Source: Candidatus Latescibacterota bacterium (GTDB lineage Bacteria > Latescibacterota > UBA2968). From it: a stretch of 64,000 nucleotides of DNA. The stretch spans positions 1,600,001-1,664,000 of the forward strand of contig OZ242195.1 of the NCBI GenBank assembly GCA_965205975.1, in the 5' to 3' direction. The position numbers are program-made. Every line of letters starts with the position of its first letter. Position 1 is the first letter of the stretch. Shown here piece by piece: positions 39,001 to 48,000 of the stretch.

Positions 39001-42000
39001 TCTGACATTTGTTATGAGGTCTCCGATATCATTAGTTTGTGCAACCCTGCGCCAAAGGCAAGGGCAAATCTGCTCGCGTGTCCAAGTTTTGCGCGATCTC
39101 GTTTAGGCAATTGCGCAGTATCTATACCGCGAAATATTGGATATTCTGTAAGGCTGAGGTCATCTGGCGGATCAATGGGCGGTATATCCCCCGATAGATA
39201 AACCTGTTTGCAGGTGCGGTGTGGAGAACAGGCGAGAGAGAGCCAGCGTTTTAAATTTGAAGAATCAGGGCCTGCGGTTTCAACGCCGATTAAAATACCA
39301 TTTTCAACGGAAATGTAAAAAGATCCATCGGGGTCTCTGTGAACGGCCATCTGCCTACCCGACTTCCATACGCCAGCGGGTAGTCCCGTACAAAATAAGG
39401 CCAGCGGAGCGACAGAGAGATGCAGGCGGGTTTCTCCCAGTGCAGAGCACAGGGTTTCGTATGCGTCAATCACCCCGTTGCGTACTGCGGTCCAAAAAGC
39501 CACGCGCCCTACCGGAATAATATCGATTGCGCTATTGTCAACAGGAGAAATGAGTGCCTGCGATGCTTCCCACAAAATCTGCTCGCGGAGGTCTTCTTTG
39601 CCCGCGACTTCGAGAGGAACTTTTTGCATGTGATACAGGCTACCTGAAAGACAAAAAGAAAGTGTGCCGCGCGGTTTTGACAAAATTCCAAGCACTTTTC
39701 CCAATTCCTCAACAAAGGATTCAGGTACTTCTTTTTGGGGATCAAAATCAAACGCCTCCGATACACGTTGGTTAATCAGACCCCTGAGATAGTACGCATT
39801 GTCCAATTTTTCAATGTGAGCCACGCGTAGTGTATTGCCCAAAATATGAATGCCCGTAGCTGTACTCATGGCGTACTCATCGTAAGGTGCGGACGCAAGC
39901 GCTCGAGGGTTTTGGGACCAATCCCCCTGACCTTTGTAATATCGTCAACGCGCTTAAATGCCCCATTTTTTTCGCGATAGGCCACAATACGCCCTGCAAT
40001 TTGAGGCCCAATACCGTGCAAGCGTTCAAACTCTTTTGCCGTTGCAGAGTTGATATTGATCAATTCCCTCACCTGGGGAACATTTTCTTTCGGTGAAGGG
40101 ACTGGACTTTGCCTCTGTGTTAGAGATGTAACCTGTGGAACTTCTGTCTTTTCTTCTGGCGATGGAACTTCCACGGCATTTTTATGCACCTCAAAATCGG
40201 GAATGTGATCCGGATTTTTACTATCGAGATAACGGATGACAATCCCTATAATAAGAACGCCGCAAAGCAGCAATAAGATAATTTGTTCGTTGCGGTTAAA
40301 AGTAAACATAGAAAAGTCCAATTATTGAAATCCGATTTCACCCCAGAATCGAAAATCCCAGGTCACATTTGTGAGTTCACGCAGGTGGTCTTTGCGCCGT
40401 TCATGGCGAAACGTCGTACCGCCTGTAAATCGCGAGCTAAAGGCATATTGCGTCCCCAGGCTTACAGACCAGGATGTCGAGTTTTGGCGGATAATGGGGT
40501 CGGCTGGCACATCTGGTTCGGCACTTCGGGGCATTTCGGTTTGCGTATTCGAGGTACGCGAAAAGGAAAGCGTGAGGTCGAGAGTGCCTTGAAATTTTCC
40601 GCGCAGCGAATAGCGCATATCTGCTTGCAATGTACCGTTTTCCGTCAAAGTGGTTGAAAGCAGGCGGTCGGCAAGGGTCGGTTGGACAGAAGCGGTATCG
40701 ACAGTCACATTGCGCTGGTAGCGGATTTCATCTGTGCTCGTTTGTCGGCGGCTAAATGTCGTCTTCACATCGCCTTTCCAGCTCGCGCTCCACTGAAAAA
40801 GTGGATTGTAGGATATTTCTTTGGCATCGCTTGTCAGATAAAGCGGCGAGAGACTGAGGCTGCCATCGCCCCGTCGGGTGCGCGATTCCTGGTATCCAAA
40901 AGTGGCATTGGAACTGACCCATAACCAGCCGATCAAAGGCACGCGATCAAGGCCGCGCCAACTCGCGTCAAATTTGGGAAAGATGACCTGATCGTCTTTC
41001 CCGAGTGTACTGCCCGTGCGTTCGTTTTCAGAATAATTGGCAGAGGTGTTGAAATTCAGGCCCAGAGGCAGTCGAATACCGCTGGATACCTGAGCCTGTC
41101 TTCGCACATTGATAGCATTGGTTCTCGTTCCCGAACCCGTGATTACAATGGGGACCTGCACCGTATCTTGAAAGCCAAATTGATAGGCCAATGAAGGACG
41201 GGCTGTGAGGCCAAATAAATTATTTGATTTATTTTGAGAAACACTGCTCGTCACATTTTGAAGACGACCGCCTACTTTTCCAATCCATTGCAAAATGGAA
41301 AAGCCACCATCTTTGCCGGATCTGCGCGTCCAGCGTTGAAACAACCCGGGCAAGTTGAGATTGACACGCGCATTCGCCGTCTGCTGGTTATTGACAGTAA
41401 GGCCGCGCCGGATACTGCCGTACTGCACGCGCTCCCCACCGATTTCAAAGCGATCCGTGTACGTGGCCGAATACGACGGGTTCACGGTAATCCAGTTGGA
41501 AAAGCGCGGTGTAAATCTGAAATTGAGCGATTGGTTACGCGATATTTCGCGTCCAAATTGGAGTTGGGTCAGGGCATATCCATTTCGCAAATCGCGGTTG
41601 ATCGTGAGCGAATAATCGGCATTTAGACTGCGAAATGGCGAGAGTTTTATAGCGTAACTTTCGGTCAGATTGAATGTTTCTCGCACCGTATCAATCACAT
41701 TTGAAGTGTCGCCAGCGATGGCGCGAAATGAGGTTTGGTCCGACACGCCACGATTAAAACGCAGGTTGTAATTGATACTGGTGGGCAGGTAAAAAAATTG
41801 TGCTTCTTTGAGCGGCTTGTAAAAGGGCAACCACTTAAAAATAGCCAGAGTCTTGCGCTGAGACCACGCCTGATTATAGGTCATGTTGCCGTTTAAGTTC
41901 TGGTTCTGGCTTCGCCTGCGCTGTGTAATCGCACCCGTTGTCGATGCATCAGAACTATAGTTGAGCGACGTGGAGGCTTTGTCAAAAAAAATGCGAGACA

Positions 42001-45000: not shown

Positions 45001-48000
45001 TACCTGCCTGATTATCCTGTTCACTTTCACCCGGCACCTTGCGAAAGATGCCGACGAACAGACCAATTTGATCGATGTTGCGCCCGCCAAGGTAATAGAC
45101 ATTGCGCCACGCGAGTTTCCAGGTCGGGTCTGTGGGGCGTTGTTGTCTGGCTTTGATGAGCTTGAGTTGAATTTTTTTGTCGGGATTTCCCGGCTCGGGA
45201 ATAAATTGTATATCACCAAAATTTTCACCCGACGCGGTTTGATAAGCCACCGCAAGCGTGTAGCCCCTCGATATCCGACCTCGGTCATGGATGAGATAGC
45301 CTTCGGGTAAGGTCGTAAATTCGGAGGGGGCGAGTTCGTGAAACATACCTTCTTCAACGCCCTTATCAAAACCACGCGATGCCTCTTCATCGGGCGATCC
45401 ATTGTTCCACGCGAGGTATGCAACGCCGGGAATGGCCGAGTCTTCGAGGTCGTTTTGCGCGTTGTAGTCGTTTATGAATACGCGCACGCTCTGTTCATTG
45501 ACGCGATCGCCCGGCGCGGGGAACAAGCTGTTGCGGAAATTTTCTCGATAAGTATTATCGAGAAAAAAGTAGGTGTTTTCGACGTACTCGTAATCGTGGA
45601 TTTGATCGGATCTTTCTTGCCCTTGCCCCGTAAAGGTCTGGCGATCGCTCGACGATTTGTCCTGAGATGTGACAACCGTAAAATTGATGGCGCCAACCCG
45701 CCCCCGCGTTTTGATGCCAAATAGCCCACCTCTGTTGCCGCCGCTAAATCCAATCAGGCGGGTACCGGGTAATGCCAGCGACGTGTTGCCCGCTTCTATG
45801 GTTTCAATAATGCCGTCTTCATCGCCTGTGTATTGCAGGCGCAGGCCCTCGGCCAGATCAAAGCCCTGTCGCTCGCTATTTTGCTCCAACGAAACCATGA
45901 TCCGATCACCAATGGTGCCTTCAACAGCGAGTTGGGCCTCTTGCTCAAAATTGATAGTGGGAAAGCGAGATGTGCTCAGGTGAGCCGCTTGCGCCTGTCC
46001 CAAAGTGTATTGCGAGAGACCCGACAATTCGATGCGGCGATGTCCCCTGATGGTAAGATTGGCGGCCCCTTCCCCAGTAATAGCACTCAAACGCTGGGGA
46101 ACGCGAATCGGTATTTTGACATCAATCAATCCATCGCCTTCTTCATCGTCATCCATGCGGCCTCCCAATCGCTCCAGTGCAAGGCGATGGGTATCATGGT
46201 GGAACTTGTAACGCATAAAGTCGCTTAGACTGATAATCACCGGAAGGCCATAAGGCGCGCCCCCCAGGTCGCGGAACACCATCAGTGTATATTCGGCGGT
46301 TTCTGTTTCTATCAGTTGCGCCGTAGGGGACGCATAAGGGCGTCTTTGAGGAAAATAAGAAGTGGATCCAGGCGTATCGCGCAAAAAGGCTTCAAGCGTT
46401 GACACACCTATTTGCGGGCGCAAACCCGGCGTGGCAAGAGCAATACTCGGGCAGAGAAACGCGAGAAAAAACAAAACACTGAGGTTGCGTGGCCACAGGT
46501 GAATGTGAATAAACTTCATAAGGGCTTTGGGTAACAGTCGGAAAGTTGTATTAAGGAGCCGGTGATAGGTCATTGAACAAAGTACATAATAGCACAAGCC
46601 ACATGAAAGTCAAGGTAAAATCCTCAGAAATTGGCGGGGAATAAACATCGGTAAGCGCGTCTTTTTTTTGGAGGAAAAAAGCCGTATATTTCGTTGTCGT
46701 TAAACTCATTTTTTAAAAAAAGGTTCCTCATGCGCTTGCGTCGGTATGTGCTATCCGAACTGATGATGCCATTTTTATTTAGTTTTTCGGTTATCATCTT
46801 TCTCCTGATCATCGATCTCATTTTGCAAATGCTCGATCGAATTCTGGGAAAAGGCGTCCCCATAAGTGTGGTTTTTGAGTTGTTTTTTTTAAACACAGCC
46901 TGGATGATTGCCCTCGCCGTTCCAATGGCCGTGTTGGTCAGTACCCTGCTGGCATTTGGGCGATTAAGTGCCGCAGGCGAAATTGTGGCCATGCGCGCAT
47001 TGGGCATTGGAATTCACCAGGTTGTAGGACCGGTACTACTCGTCGCCGTACTGCTGGGAATTGGGCTGGTGGTTTTTAATGACCGCGTGTTGCCCGAATT
47101 TAATCACCGCGCCCGCGTGTTGATGACAGACATTCACCGCAAACGCCCCGCAGTCGCGCTGGCCGACAAGGCCGGAGTAATGATTGGCGATTTCAAAAAT
47201 TATCAGATCTTGTTTGATCGCGCCAATACAGGTGGCAATATTCTTTACGACTTGCTGGTATATAGCTTTAATAGCAATGGGTTCCCCGAAACAGCGGTTG
47301 CCGATTCGGGCGTTGTCGAATTTGATGAAGCGCGAGACGAGGCTCTGCTCTATCTTTTTAGTGGGGAAATGCACCGCATTGATCCAGATGATCCCACAGT
47401 CTATGCACTCACGACATTTGCCAAAGCCAGATTGCGGCTCGGAGATGCGGGCCAACAGTTGTCGAGGTCTTCATCGGCATATCGCAATGATCGAGAAATG
47501 GATATCGCCACCATGCGGCATAAAATTTCTCAGTATGAAAGCGAATTGCATCAGGCGAAGGTCAAAAGGGCGAACCTTTTAGATGCGTTTGTGCGTGAAG
47601 TATTAATAGATTCCGCAGATGCAAAACCCGTGCAGTCGCTGCGCGCTGTATTGGGGCGTGGAGCAGCCGATACGCGGATTGCACGCCATAAGTCGAGAGC
47701 CGCAGATCGATTGCGCGTGGAAGTACACAAAAAATTTTCAATCCCCGCAGCCTGTGTTGCATTTGTACTGGTGGGCGCGCCTATCGGCGTGTGGGCGCGC
47801 AGCAGCAGTGCGGCAATTGGCGCGGCGATTAGCATTGGCTTTTTTTTAATCTGGTGGATCTTTCTTATCGGTGGTGAAAAATTGGCTGACCGAGGTGTAC
47901 TCATGCCCTGGTTAGCGATGTGGATGCCCAATGTATTGACCGCCCTTATAGGTGCTATCCTATCTGCGCGAATTATATGCGAGTGGGGCGCAAAAAGGAA

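Follow-up and report, generated by a model that had tools for sequence, protein, structure and literature searches.

The window, the whole stretch of 64,000 nucleotides of contig OZ242195.1 analysed here from a Candidatus Latescibacterota bacterium (genome G000), holds a single reading frame for the outer-membrane translocon of the type IX protein-secretion system (T9SS), which heads a run of genes on the reverse strand, as well as cargo genes and the opening gene of a receptor-cargo-PorV triad. The probable partner of the translocon, a lipoprotein, is encoded outside the window. The features are as follows:

9268..15135, reverse strand: cargo protein of 1955 aa (GH16-like, SWM, FN3) with a type A C-terminal sorting domain (CTD; TIGR04183 35 bits, cut-off 23)
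15190..20235, reverse strand: cargo protein of 1681 aa (Calx-beta, cadherin, FN3, PKD) and a CTD-like tail of the same type (domain and local CTD match)
37258..38238, reverse strand: obgE GTPase, a housekeeping gene, the last of the run
38250..39008, reverse strand: coiled-coil and NYN-domain protein (PF01936), same run
39012..39869, reverse strand: degenerate PilM/HofM-like protein (Atlas feature score 0.96 to PilM clusters)
39866..40321, reverse strand: comEA-like helix-hairpin-helix membrane protein, directly after sprA (TIGR00426 73 bits, cut-off 53.1)
40322..46573, reverse strand: sprA/sov, T9SS outer-membrane translocon, a single 2083-aa frame (TIGR04189 SprA 636.7 bits, cut-off 200; PF14349)
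46624..47007, reverse strand: reading frame overlapping lptF, with no family match
46694..49077, forward strand: lptF-lptG (PF03739), divergent from sprA
61178..64000, forward strand: TonB-dependent receptor opening a receptor-cargo-PorV triad, extending past the window end (contig 1661178-1667830)
contig 4479757-4481856 (locus L162:472-2571), reverse strand, outside the window: SprE-like TPR lipoprotein with a TonB_C tail, the putative SprA partner

The first-pass annotation had identified the 2083-aa frame as SprA, and this identification holds. The only PDB sequence matches of the protein are to F. johnsoniae SprA (E 1e-47), while its N-terminus aligns with that of Parabacteroides SprA and retains the Skp-binding region. 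The protein was found in all 140 Latescibacterota genomes (139 over the cut-off), in 61 of 61 KSB1 and in 5 of 5 Zixibacteria genomes. The first-pass statement that the T9SS is described as confined to Bacteroidota was overstated, as PMC12611786 terms SprA "FCB-specific", with Chlorobiota given there as the one FCB phylum that lacks BamG/BamH and also SprA. The small frame overlapping lptF is probably not a gene, given this overlap and its lack of a family. The genes from sprA to obgE are covered by contigs from four metatranscriptome runs (three studies), dipping at 46522-47022; contigs of this kind cannot show transcription and are given no weight here.

The genes that accompany sprA recur to different degrees, the comEA-like gene at no fewer than 42 of 80 loci, the PilM-like gene at 61 of 80 (and 9 of 15 further loci), a PilN/O-like gene at 29 of 80 (7 of 15), and the coiled-coil/NYN-domain gene, to which no T9SS role is assigned, at 18 of 80. 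The run often also holds dprA. This company might indicate that SprA is not mainly a CTD exporter, and is either a relic or a channel for other traffic, such as DNA uptake with ComEA, the PilM-like protein, and DprA, as the rarity of PilC (25 of 140 genomes) and the absence of secretin from three of the five genomes tested would also allow. This is very improbable, however, given the retention of 25 CTD proteins, 15 PorV-family genes and a PorU-like peptidase, the lack of any pilM-like gene in the parts listed of 16 KSB1 sprA loci, and the presence in the run of plain housekeeping genes, coaD and obgE. The frequency of the PilM-like and PilN/O-like genes would also suit a repurposed type IV pilus alignment module that spans the envelope beside SprA and powers release, but no PilN/O-like gene, PilC, pilus ATPase or secretin was found in the G000 genome, which leaves the PilM-like protein an orphan and the module without an energy source or membrane anchor; on gene content alone, this idea can be given hardly any credence. 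Genes for ExbBD-TonB were not seen adjoining sprA in the parts listed of the Latescibacterota loci examined, and among the 16 KSB1 loci, likewise listed in part, only two have them in the 20 kb covered.

The remainder of the secretion apparatus is largely as first described. Local searches recovered 17 PorV-like proteins in G000, of which 12 were scored on NCBIfam, with ten passing NF033709 at 107-230 bits and two failing, one of them BamG-like; together with the other five, which are strong local matches, the ten are consistent with the 15 PorV/PorQ paralogues reported earlier. On the strict PorV model NF033710, none of them scores above 160.6 (cut-off 250). The count of at least 24 sorting-domain cargos is likewise sustained by 25 proteins with a CTD-like tail in a local HMM search, every one of which has a signal-peptide-like N-terminus by a hydrophobicity rule, and ten of the CTD proteins scanned pass TIGR04183. 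The PorV-family genes of this genome are mostly private to one cargo, and 11 of the 25 cargo genes lie in receptor-cargo-PorV triads (11 triads). PorX was found as claimed (654.1 bits), with a histidine kinase gene adjacent. The PorU-like C25 peptidase stands in part, the protein (1903 aa, with a CTD, and His and Cys motifs identified by eye) having the C25 domain but reaching only 338 bits on PorU NF033707 (cut-off 420), a threshold exceeded in three of five genomes (G007, G008, and G109). In the scanned CTD proteins, matches to a PorZ profile were restricted to the CTD region. A single Skp gene lies beside bamA. The translocon set of the proposed outer-membrane module is present, but the module is not confined to the outer membrane, given the periplasmic SprE-like lipoprotein, Skp, and the Skp-binding N-terminus of SprA.

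The reported absence of GldL, GldM and GldN proved to be wider than one genome, with no match over the cut-off in 140 Latescibacterota genomes for GldL (TIGR03513), GldN (PF19841) or GldM (PF12081), nor for GldM in 61 KSB1 and 61 Zixibacteria genomes, although the Gld profiles are Bacteroidota-derived, and the Gld searches, like that for Plug (PF17116; 0 of 140 Latescibacterota over the cut-off), included no positive-control genome. As also reported, GldK is represented only by generic FGE proteins, 15 of which were found by PF03781 rather than TIGR03525, all of them lacking both a regex lipobox and the RGCF motif of PorK. Five genomes gave no match over the cut-off to PF19573, which we take to be the PorG family. 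No PorG gene was found upstream of bamA, nor any convincing cysteine-tail candidate. Weak GldL matches in five of 140 genomes are attributed to chance (frames of 621-1212 aa, matched only at positions 61-243), as are weak GldM matches in nine of 140 (E<=0.1), given that 2 of 14 controls match likewise. One plasmid record carrying sprA lacks gldM, and no gldK was found among the 60 of 783 plasmid FGE matches listed.

On these profile searches, export without GldLMKN in these bacteria appears highly probable, and the earlier statement that the pore must be energised or gated differently is right, given that a translocon with its carriers and cargo persists where no GldK/L/M/N is recognisable, so that release must differ. 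A motor might nevertheless have gone unrecognised, either as very divergent GldLM/KN analogues or as a dedicated orphan 5:2 ExbB/MotA-type motor that ejects the carrier; in addition to the origin of the profiles, the SprE-like protein itself falls below its family cut-off, which implies large divergence, and G000 has two orphan ExbB-ExbD-like pairs. Such a motor is improbable, as a topology scan of 4692 ORFs gave only one GldL/GldM-like adjacent pair, with a second gene resembling an efflux adaptor, searches revealed neither an RGCF-bearing FGE lipoprotein nor PorG, and the orphan pairs are rarely matched elsewhere, whereas SprA is universal. Of 33 ExbB loci from five genomes, the 30 that were compared hold nothing corresponding to pair A, and pair B has a counterpart only in G043 and G109, the ExbB-type motor common to the genomes compared being the TPR-ExbB-ExbD-TonB set. 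Two further candidates were rejected on presumptive labels given by eye, an ExbB with FGE genes as neighbours at contig 1.18 Mb, considered as a gldKL analogue and assigned to an FHA/kinase/trypsin cluster, and an ExbB-like gene at 4.39 Mb, labelled ZorA/ZorB-like. A weak phmmer search from ZorB found no other OmpA-type domain.

What is new here is the SprE/PorW-like lipoprotein, which was absent from the earlier list of components, and whose gene is single-copy in 138 of 140 Latescibacterota and in 61 of 61 Zixibacteria. All five proteins scored against the SprE/PorW profile NF052312 reach 92.8-134.6 bits (cut-off 250). Searched with its own profile, the protein has SprE as its best natural PDB match (E 3.9e-24), collinear over 50-566, SprE is also its first-ranked Foldseek match, and VIA aligned 529 residues to SprE, the next family reaching 320. 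Ranked by Z-score, SprE is equalled or exceeded by generic TPR proteins (25.9 for these, 24.5 for SprE), and BamD is a better match than SprE when the first 123 positions are taken by themselves (6e-14 for BamD, 2e-6 for SprE), but a BamD identity is rejected, as a separate BamD gene scores 146.4 bits. The lipoprotein is, very probably, SprE. Its Cys17 is invariant in 35 of 35 aligned rows, which were selected by that motif, and it has a lipoprotein signal only, with no transmembrane helix predicted. The stretch of about 385-530 in the profile, the presumed site of the Finger insertion, went unmatched. A complex prediction of SprA 50-335 and 1895-2083 with residues 17-400 of this protein scored 0.00, with no controls folded, and weighs neither way.

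The TonB_C tail scores 37.2 on TIGR01352 (cut-off 27.1), and has the strand/helix pattern in the predicted model. It is present in 39 of 52 Latescibacterota copies of the SprE-like protein and absent from the other 13, and was found in 21 of 30 Zixibacteria copies with an HMM built from inner-membrane TonBs only, or 27 of 30 with a broader one, as well as on single records labelled Calditrichaeota, KSB1, and Zixibacteria. It is absent from the copies in three of three KSB1 genomes. The domain is duplicated up to four times and kept across two phyla. A link to triad-type receptors was rejected, as many families with receptors lack the domain; of the sampled families, f8, f9, and f10 lack both, although such kin are not independent. 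Genus g9, families f7 and f13, and KSB1 have 5-22 triad-type receptors and no TonB_C, which, consequently, cannot be a general solution. Nor can ExbBD pull it directly, since the lipoprotein has no inner-membrane anchor. It is, even so, the best lead to the missing coupling. In P. gingivalis, PorW uses its C-terminal domain to bind PorN (PMC8754138), and the TonB_C tail occupies, by analogy, the place of this contact with the PorN ring. The tail by which PorW binds PorN shows no conservation, and F. johnsoniae SprE can do without the corresponding region.

The route that these parts may form is tentative as a whole, a plausible reading that is somewhat more open to doubt than to acceptance, in which a vertically inherited Extended Translocon (SprA, a PorV-family carrier, the SprE-like lipoprotein, and Skp, but no GldLM motor, no GldKN track and neither PorG nor Plug) would release its cargo through TonB-box docking and hand-over. 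Judged by sequence features, cargo with a signal peptide and CTD would reach the periplasm, where the CTD would load onto the PorV loops inside SprA, a step that needs no energy in F. johnsoniae (PMC10994853). The tethered TonB_C of SprE would then grip a TonB-box strand, the likeliest being in the TonB-dependent receptor whose gene accompanies those of the cargo and its private PorV, and would hold this receptor at the lateral gate, so that the carrier-cargo complex could leave by binding to it, with the general ExbB-ExbD-TonB motor as the likeliest source of force, if any is needed. PorU-type cleavage or stable carrier binding might finally make release irreversible. The 14 of 25 cargo genes outside triads weigh against this reading, as do the scarcity of ExbBD-TonB genes beside sprA in the loci listed and the trapping of F. 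johnsoniae cargo in the absence of a motor.

Release might instead be a passive ratchet, with a thermal dissociation of carrier-cargo complexes from SprA that cleavage by PorU, folding outside the cell or binding to a partner turns into a one-way step, and with TonB_C as a side tether, to the cell wall, for example, that has no part in release. The energy-free loading, the failure to find a motor, track or PorG, the many genomes that keep SprA and SprE without TonB_C, and the PorU proteins over the cut-off are all consistent with this. It is, however, unlikely, given that the F. johnsoniae CTD has about 1,850 A2 buried in SprA-PorV and remains trapped there when no energy is supplied, that SprE, the known job of which is release, is kept so widely, and that TonB_C persists in two phyla and has been duplicated.

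One of the closest known systems is the F. johnsoniae Extended Translocon (SprA-PorV-PPI-SprE-SkpA-PorD; PDB 8GL8; PMC10994853), which shares SprA with its Skp-binding N-terminus, carriers of the PorV family, cargo with a type A CTD, a TPR lipoprotein of SprE type that can be aligned over its whole length, and Skp, but differs from the present system, in which GldLM, GldKN, PorG, and Plug were not found, the SprE-like protein lacks the 385-530 match and usually ends in TonB_C, and there is one Skp instead of two, alongside 15 PorV-family genes. The P. gingivalis T9SS, with its Sov-PorW-PorN/K bridge and PorU-PorV-PorQ-PorZ attachment complex (PMC8754138), shares a PorW-like lipoprotein with an extra C-terminal domain, a C25 peptidase of putative PorU type with a CTD, and PorX, whereas here the extra domain is TonB_C rather than the PorN-binding D6, no ring was found, PorU of G000 is below the cut-off, and no PorZ was seen among the CTD proteins scanned. 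In Melioribacter and Ignavibacterium, one sentence of PMC11705866 lists PorV, SprA, and Plug and no other T9SS protein, and offers no mechanism for this translocon-only set; GldK/L/M/N are lacking in both cases, but the present genomes yielded an SprE-like gene and no Plug. The Ton system and SusC/SusD pairs share the TonB_C domain and a receptor paired with a surface protein, but TonB_C lies here on a lipoprotein TPR scaffold without an inner-membrane helix, and a CTD cargo with its PorV-type carrier takes the place of a lipoprotein as surface partner.

In the T9SSs studied so far, the step that requires energy is the release of cargo, for which GldLM, GldK, and PorG are needed (PMC10994853, PMC12635249). 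As the pore, SprE, carriers, and cargo appear to be retained in three phyla in their absence, release must have a second solution. The T9SS has been inferred to have first evolved inside the gliding machinery (PMC12635249), an origin that this distribution challenges, as a near-universal motorless translocon in sister phyla suggests that the pore may have come before the motor. It is conceivable, if doubtful, that the ancestral FCB T9SS was a Ton-coupled exporter, in which SprA/SprE/PorV placed surface partners on TonB-dependent receptors, ExbBD-TonB supplied force through TonB-box contacts organised by the TonB_C of SprE, and GldLM/GldKN were added later in Bacteroidia; if true, this would reverse the published model. 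The SprE-TonB_C fusion offers one small domain for testing, and structural and reconstitution work would be simpler with a reduced T9SS. In the SprA tree, KSB1 (support 1.0) and Latescibacterota (0.96) are both recovered as clades, and the lptF-lptG cluster, found at 67 of 80 sprA loci, is a synteny marker kept in both.

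The outer-membrane half of a type IX secretion system (T9SS) is represented in the source genome, an assembly of one contig that is 98.3% complete, by the translocon gene sprA, whose product scores 636.7 bits against TIGR04189 (cut-off 200) and has F. johnsoniae SprA as its sole match in a PDB sequence search.

Window 40322-46573, minus strand: sprA, 2083 aa

A local HMM recovered 17 PorV-like matches, and NF033709 was passed by 10 of the 12 such proteins scored on NCBIfam (107-230 bits) and failed by two, one of them BamG-like; a BamG-like barrel at L314:1772-3046 (a fetched locus, with its own coordinates) reaches 42 bits against a cut-off of 250, and fits a BAM complex of the Bacteroidota type. 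PorX scores 654.1 bits and adjoins a histidine kinase, the C25 peptidase is PorU-like, yet under the cut-off (338 vs 420), and a local HMM for the C-terminal sorting domain (CTD) recovered 25 proteins, all with a signal-peptide-like N-terminus. The component counts of the first-pass annotation are therefore confirmed. In its working, the system resembles a T9SS translocon half. Alongside these carriers and cargo, it is very unlikely that SprA serves other traffic or is a relic.

The motor, which the same annotation had claimed to be absent, was indeed not recovered. In a panel of 140 Latescibacterota genomes, each at least 85% complete and with kin that are not independent, SprA was matched in all 140 (139 above the cut-off). 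Bacteroidota-derived profiles, scored without a positive-control genome, gave no match above the cut-off in any of the 140 for GldM (PF12081), GldL (TIGR03513), GldN (PF19841) or Plug (PF17116), and none in five genomes for PF19573, which we take to be the PorG family. The bamA locus of the source genome reads clpC-bamA-skp-fabZ (clpC and fabZ labelled by eye), with the one Skp directly behind bamA and no small barrel gene upstream of it. None of the 15 FGE-sulfatase-domain proteins has a lipobox by regular expression, or the RGCF motif, which holds the essential PorK cysteine (PMC12635249, excerpt). Canonical T9SS membership fails on the motor, ring, PorG and Plug. Among 4692 ORFs scanned for adjacent GldL-like and GldM-like topologies, the sole pair resembles an efflux adaptor.

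A hidden motor is an improbable explanation, for which the six ExbB/MotA-type genes of the source genome may be considered: two in ordinary ExbB-ExbD-TonB sets, one within an FHA/kinase cluster, one ZorA-like gene, and two orphans.

L141:5678-10287: ExbB-ExbD-like pair, orphan A
L142:4573-7123: ExbB-ExbD-like pair, orphan B

Of the 33 ExbB loci in five other genomes, 30 were compared: none has a counterpart of orphan A, and orphan B is matched in G043 and G109 alone. For the TPR-ExbB-ExbD-TonB set, four of these genomes have ExbB orthologues with 56-73% identity, and the fifth has matching flanks. Locus L154 (contig 1180488-1190773) holds FHA, trypsin-like, MotA/ExbB-like, kinase-FGE and FGE genes, and is also found in G043 (twice) and G109; a ZorA/ZorB-like defence pair, labelled by eye, lies at contig 4387986-4390031.

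A SprE-like lipoprotein gene, overlooked in the first-pass annotation, is located outside the window, between carB-like and pyrK-like genes (labels by eye).

Contig 4479757-4481856, minus strand: SprE-like gene, 699 aa, cysteine 17 behind the signal peptide

With the SprE/PorW model NF052312, a single best gene emerged in each of five genomes, aligning to both the N-terminal and the C-terminal part of the model. SprE (8gl8_I) is the top natural PDB match of a 35-row profile (E 3.9e-24), in a single collinear stretch (50-566), and is also Foldseek rank 1 for the predicted structure (pLDDT 88; 617 columns), with 529 residues aligned onto it by VIA, starting at the N-terminus. Against this identity, NF052312 scores only 93-135 bits vs a cut-off of 250, the N-terminal piece by itself matches BamD better, and LGN-type TPRs reach Z 25.9 vs 24.5 for SprE, though across just 320 residues; a separate BamD is present in the genome. 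On balance, orthology with SprE is probable. The gene occurs once per genome in 138 of the 140 Latescibacterota, in 61/61 Zixibacteria, and in four of five genomes of a mixed KSB1/Zixibacteria set. At L202 (G027), the SprE-like frame apparently runs on into the pyrK-like gene (1110 aa).

The predicted model of this protein comprises TPRs, a disordered linker (551-603), and, from about residue 605 to 699, a TonB C-terminal domain (TonB_C) at the end, which scores 37.2 bits against TIGR01352 (cut-off 27.1). The tail was found in 39 of the 52 complete Latescibacterota copies fetched (21 of the 52 from one genus; one cut copy excluded), and in Zixibacteria in 21/30 copies with an HMM built from inner-membrane TonBs only, or 27/30 with a broader one, and in none of three KSB1 copies. 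Families f1, f3, f4 and f12 have it, as does part of f2, sometimes in two to four copies, and it is missing from genus g9 and families f5, f7, f8, f9, f10 and f13. PF03544 is also carried by individual database entries under the labels Calditrichaeota, KSB1 and Zixibacteria. The slot able to connect with the energy chain appears to be occupied here by a Ton-type binding module. The SprE-like protein of L203 (G055; 1227 aa) has four TonB_C domains, and a multi-pass membrane protein at contig 2012558-2014966 (M56-like by eye) has four in tandem.

In the F. johnsoniae T9SS, loading is energy-free, whereas release requires energy and depends on SprE together with SkpA (PMC10994853, excerpt). The inventory at the sequence level comprises pore, carriers, cargo, SprE-like protein, Skp and TonB_C, and the SkpA-enclosed N-terminal region of SprA aligns with its Parabacteroides counterpart. 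The TonB_C of SprE might grip a TonB box at the gate, probably that of the cognate receptor, where the carrier-cargo complex would then be passed on; any force needed would most likely come from the general Ton motor. This mechanism as a whole, docking and hand-over, is a serious possibility that falls somewhat short of probable. Its main weakness is that a TonB_C on a lipoprotein cannot be pulled by ExbBD itself and that one in four of the Latescibacterota copies sampled is without the domain. A passive ratchet, as a rival, is possible but doubtful.

Triads of TonB-dependent receptor, cargo and PorV contain 11 cargo genes; one triad receptor is split into two frames. Triad-class receptors were found in 68 of 80 genomes searched, with 11 in the source genome. 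Genus g9, f7, f13 and KSB1 have 5-22 such receptors, yet the SprE copies examined there are without TonB_C, and the tail is therefore dispensable for triads. A related small beta-barrel-like gene of 230-270 aa precedes five of the 11 triads, with no NCBIfam family in the four scanned, and is possibly a fourth module member. Behind several triads lies a multi-pass membrane protein of 650-680 aa with a similar GHxVHxW motif at its end, probably the module's inner-membrane transporter.

L147:713-1411: pre-triad small barrel gene
L148:13393-14211: pre-triad small barrel gene
L149:316-1095: pre-triad small barrel gene
L150:8255-8968: pre-triad small barrel gene
Contig 1966873: pre-triad small barrel gene
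Contig 1958245, 2003270, 3547725-3551700, 1667922 and 4821434: post-triad membrane proteins

One cargo-PorV pair is present in two apparently identical copies (contig 3027950-3030607 and 5091821-5095534), the first with its receptor split in two frames, the second without a receptor. In G007, G008 and G109, canonical porU is followed by porV and by genes for an M6-like CTD protein and for a large protein with a propeller, an arrangement unlike that of the source genome, where porU is located apart. The conserved porU run (L121, L122, L123, L145) ends with a protein of ~1030 aa that combines peptidase MA, a PD40 propeller and a barrel-like C-terminus.

Behind sprA, comEA and a PilM-like gene, often with dprA, were observed (window 39012-40321, L070-L110, L125-L137). 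A pilus module is a highly improbable driver: no pilus ATPase, PilC, secretin or PilN/O was found in the source genome to accompany the PilM-like gene, and the run is possibly a DNA-uptake remnant without a pilus. Outside f1-f3, a PilN/O-like fusion joins the sprA run, in genomes mostly without PilC, and Atlas clusters of this protein are most frequent in Fibrobacterota. A small pilin-like gene lies within the run in G004 (L137:8008-8433), and a tRNA-Arg(CCG) at window 37114-37190, immediately beyond the sprA-obgE run.

The phyla to which two loci with the labels KSB1 and Zixibacteria belong repeat this picture of a pore without its motor. SprA is present in 61/61 KSB1 and 5/5 Zixibacteria genomes, and GldM in 0/61 of each, the tests of absence there covering GldM, plus PorG in one KSB1 genome. 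The observation is real, Latescibacterota-wide, and common to at least two further phyla. Older surveys reportedly describe partial T9SS gene sets in phyla of this kind. A maximum-likelihood tree built from 27 SprA proteins over 1752 columns, with a single Parabacteroides sequence as root, has KSB1 (support 1.0) and Latescibacterota (0.96) as clades, and f4, f10 and f13 within the latter as well, with f1 unresolved. Next to sprA, the divergent lptF/lptG cluster was found at 67 of 80 loci; most KSB1 loci have it as well. These clades and this synteny are compatible with vertical descent, and do not root the order of events.

The view in the first-pass annotation that the T9SS is confined to Bacteroidota is not borne out, its occurrence elsewhere being in print (PMC12611786, PMC11285876, PMC12398890). 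The text-searched supplement of PMC12611786 lacks the term 'Latescibacter', and its Extended Data Table 2 may include these phyla. A motorless set has been published for Ignavibacterium and Melioribacter (PMC11705866), and CTD cleavage suggested for Fibrobacter succinogenes (PMC6851124), so the absence of the motor is by itself already partly known. In the open-access literature, no paper was found on the T9SS in Latescibacterota or on a SprE-TonB_C fusion, or arguing for a translocon-first origin of the T9SS, the accessible part of PMC12204202 included. Novelty appears to lie in the SprE-like gene with its TonB_C tail, and in the scale of the distribution.

Within the window, two closely alike propeller-sigma54 activator genes (554-3745 and 20505-23702; 1063 and 1065 aa) bracket three giant secreted proteins. 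The gene at 3903-9221 has no CTD match, in contrast to both neighbouring giant secreted proteins, and an IS256 fragment is located at 24411-24743.
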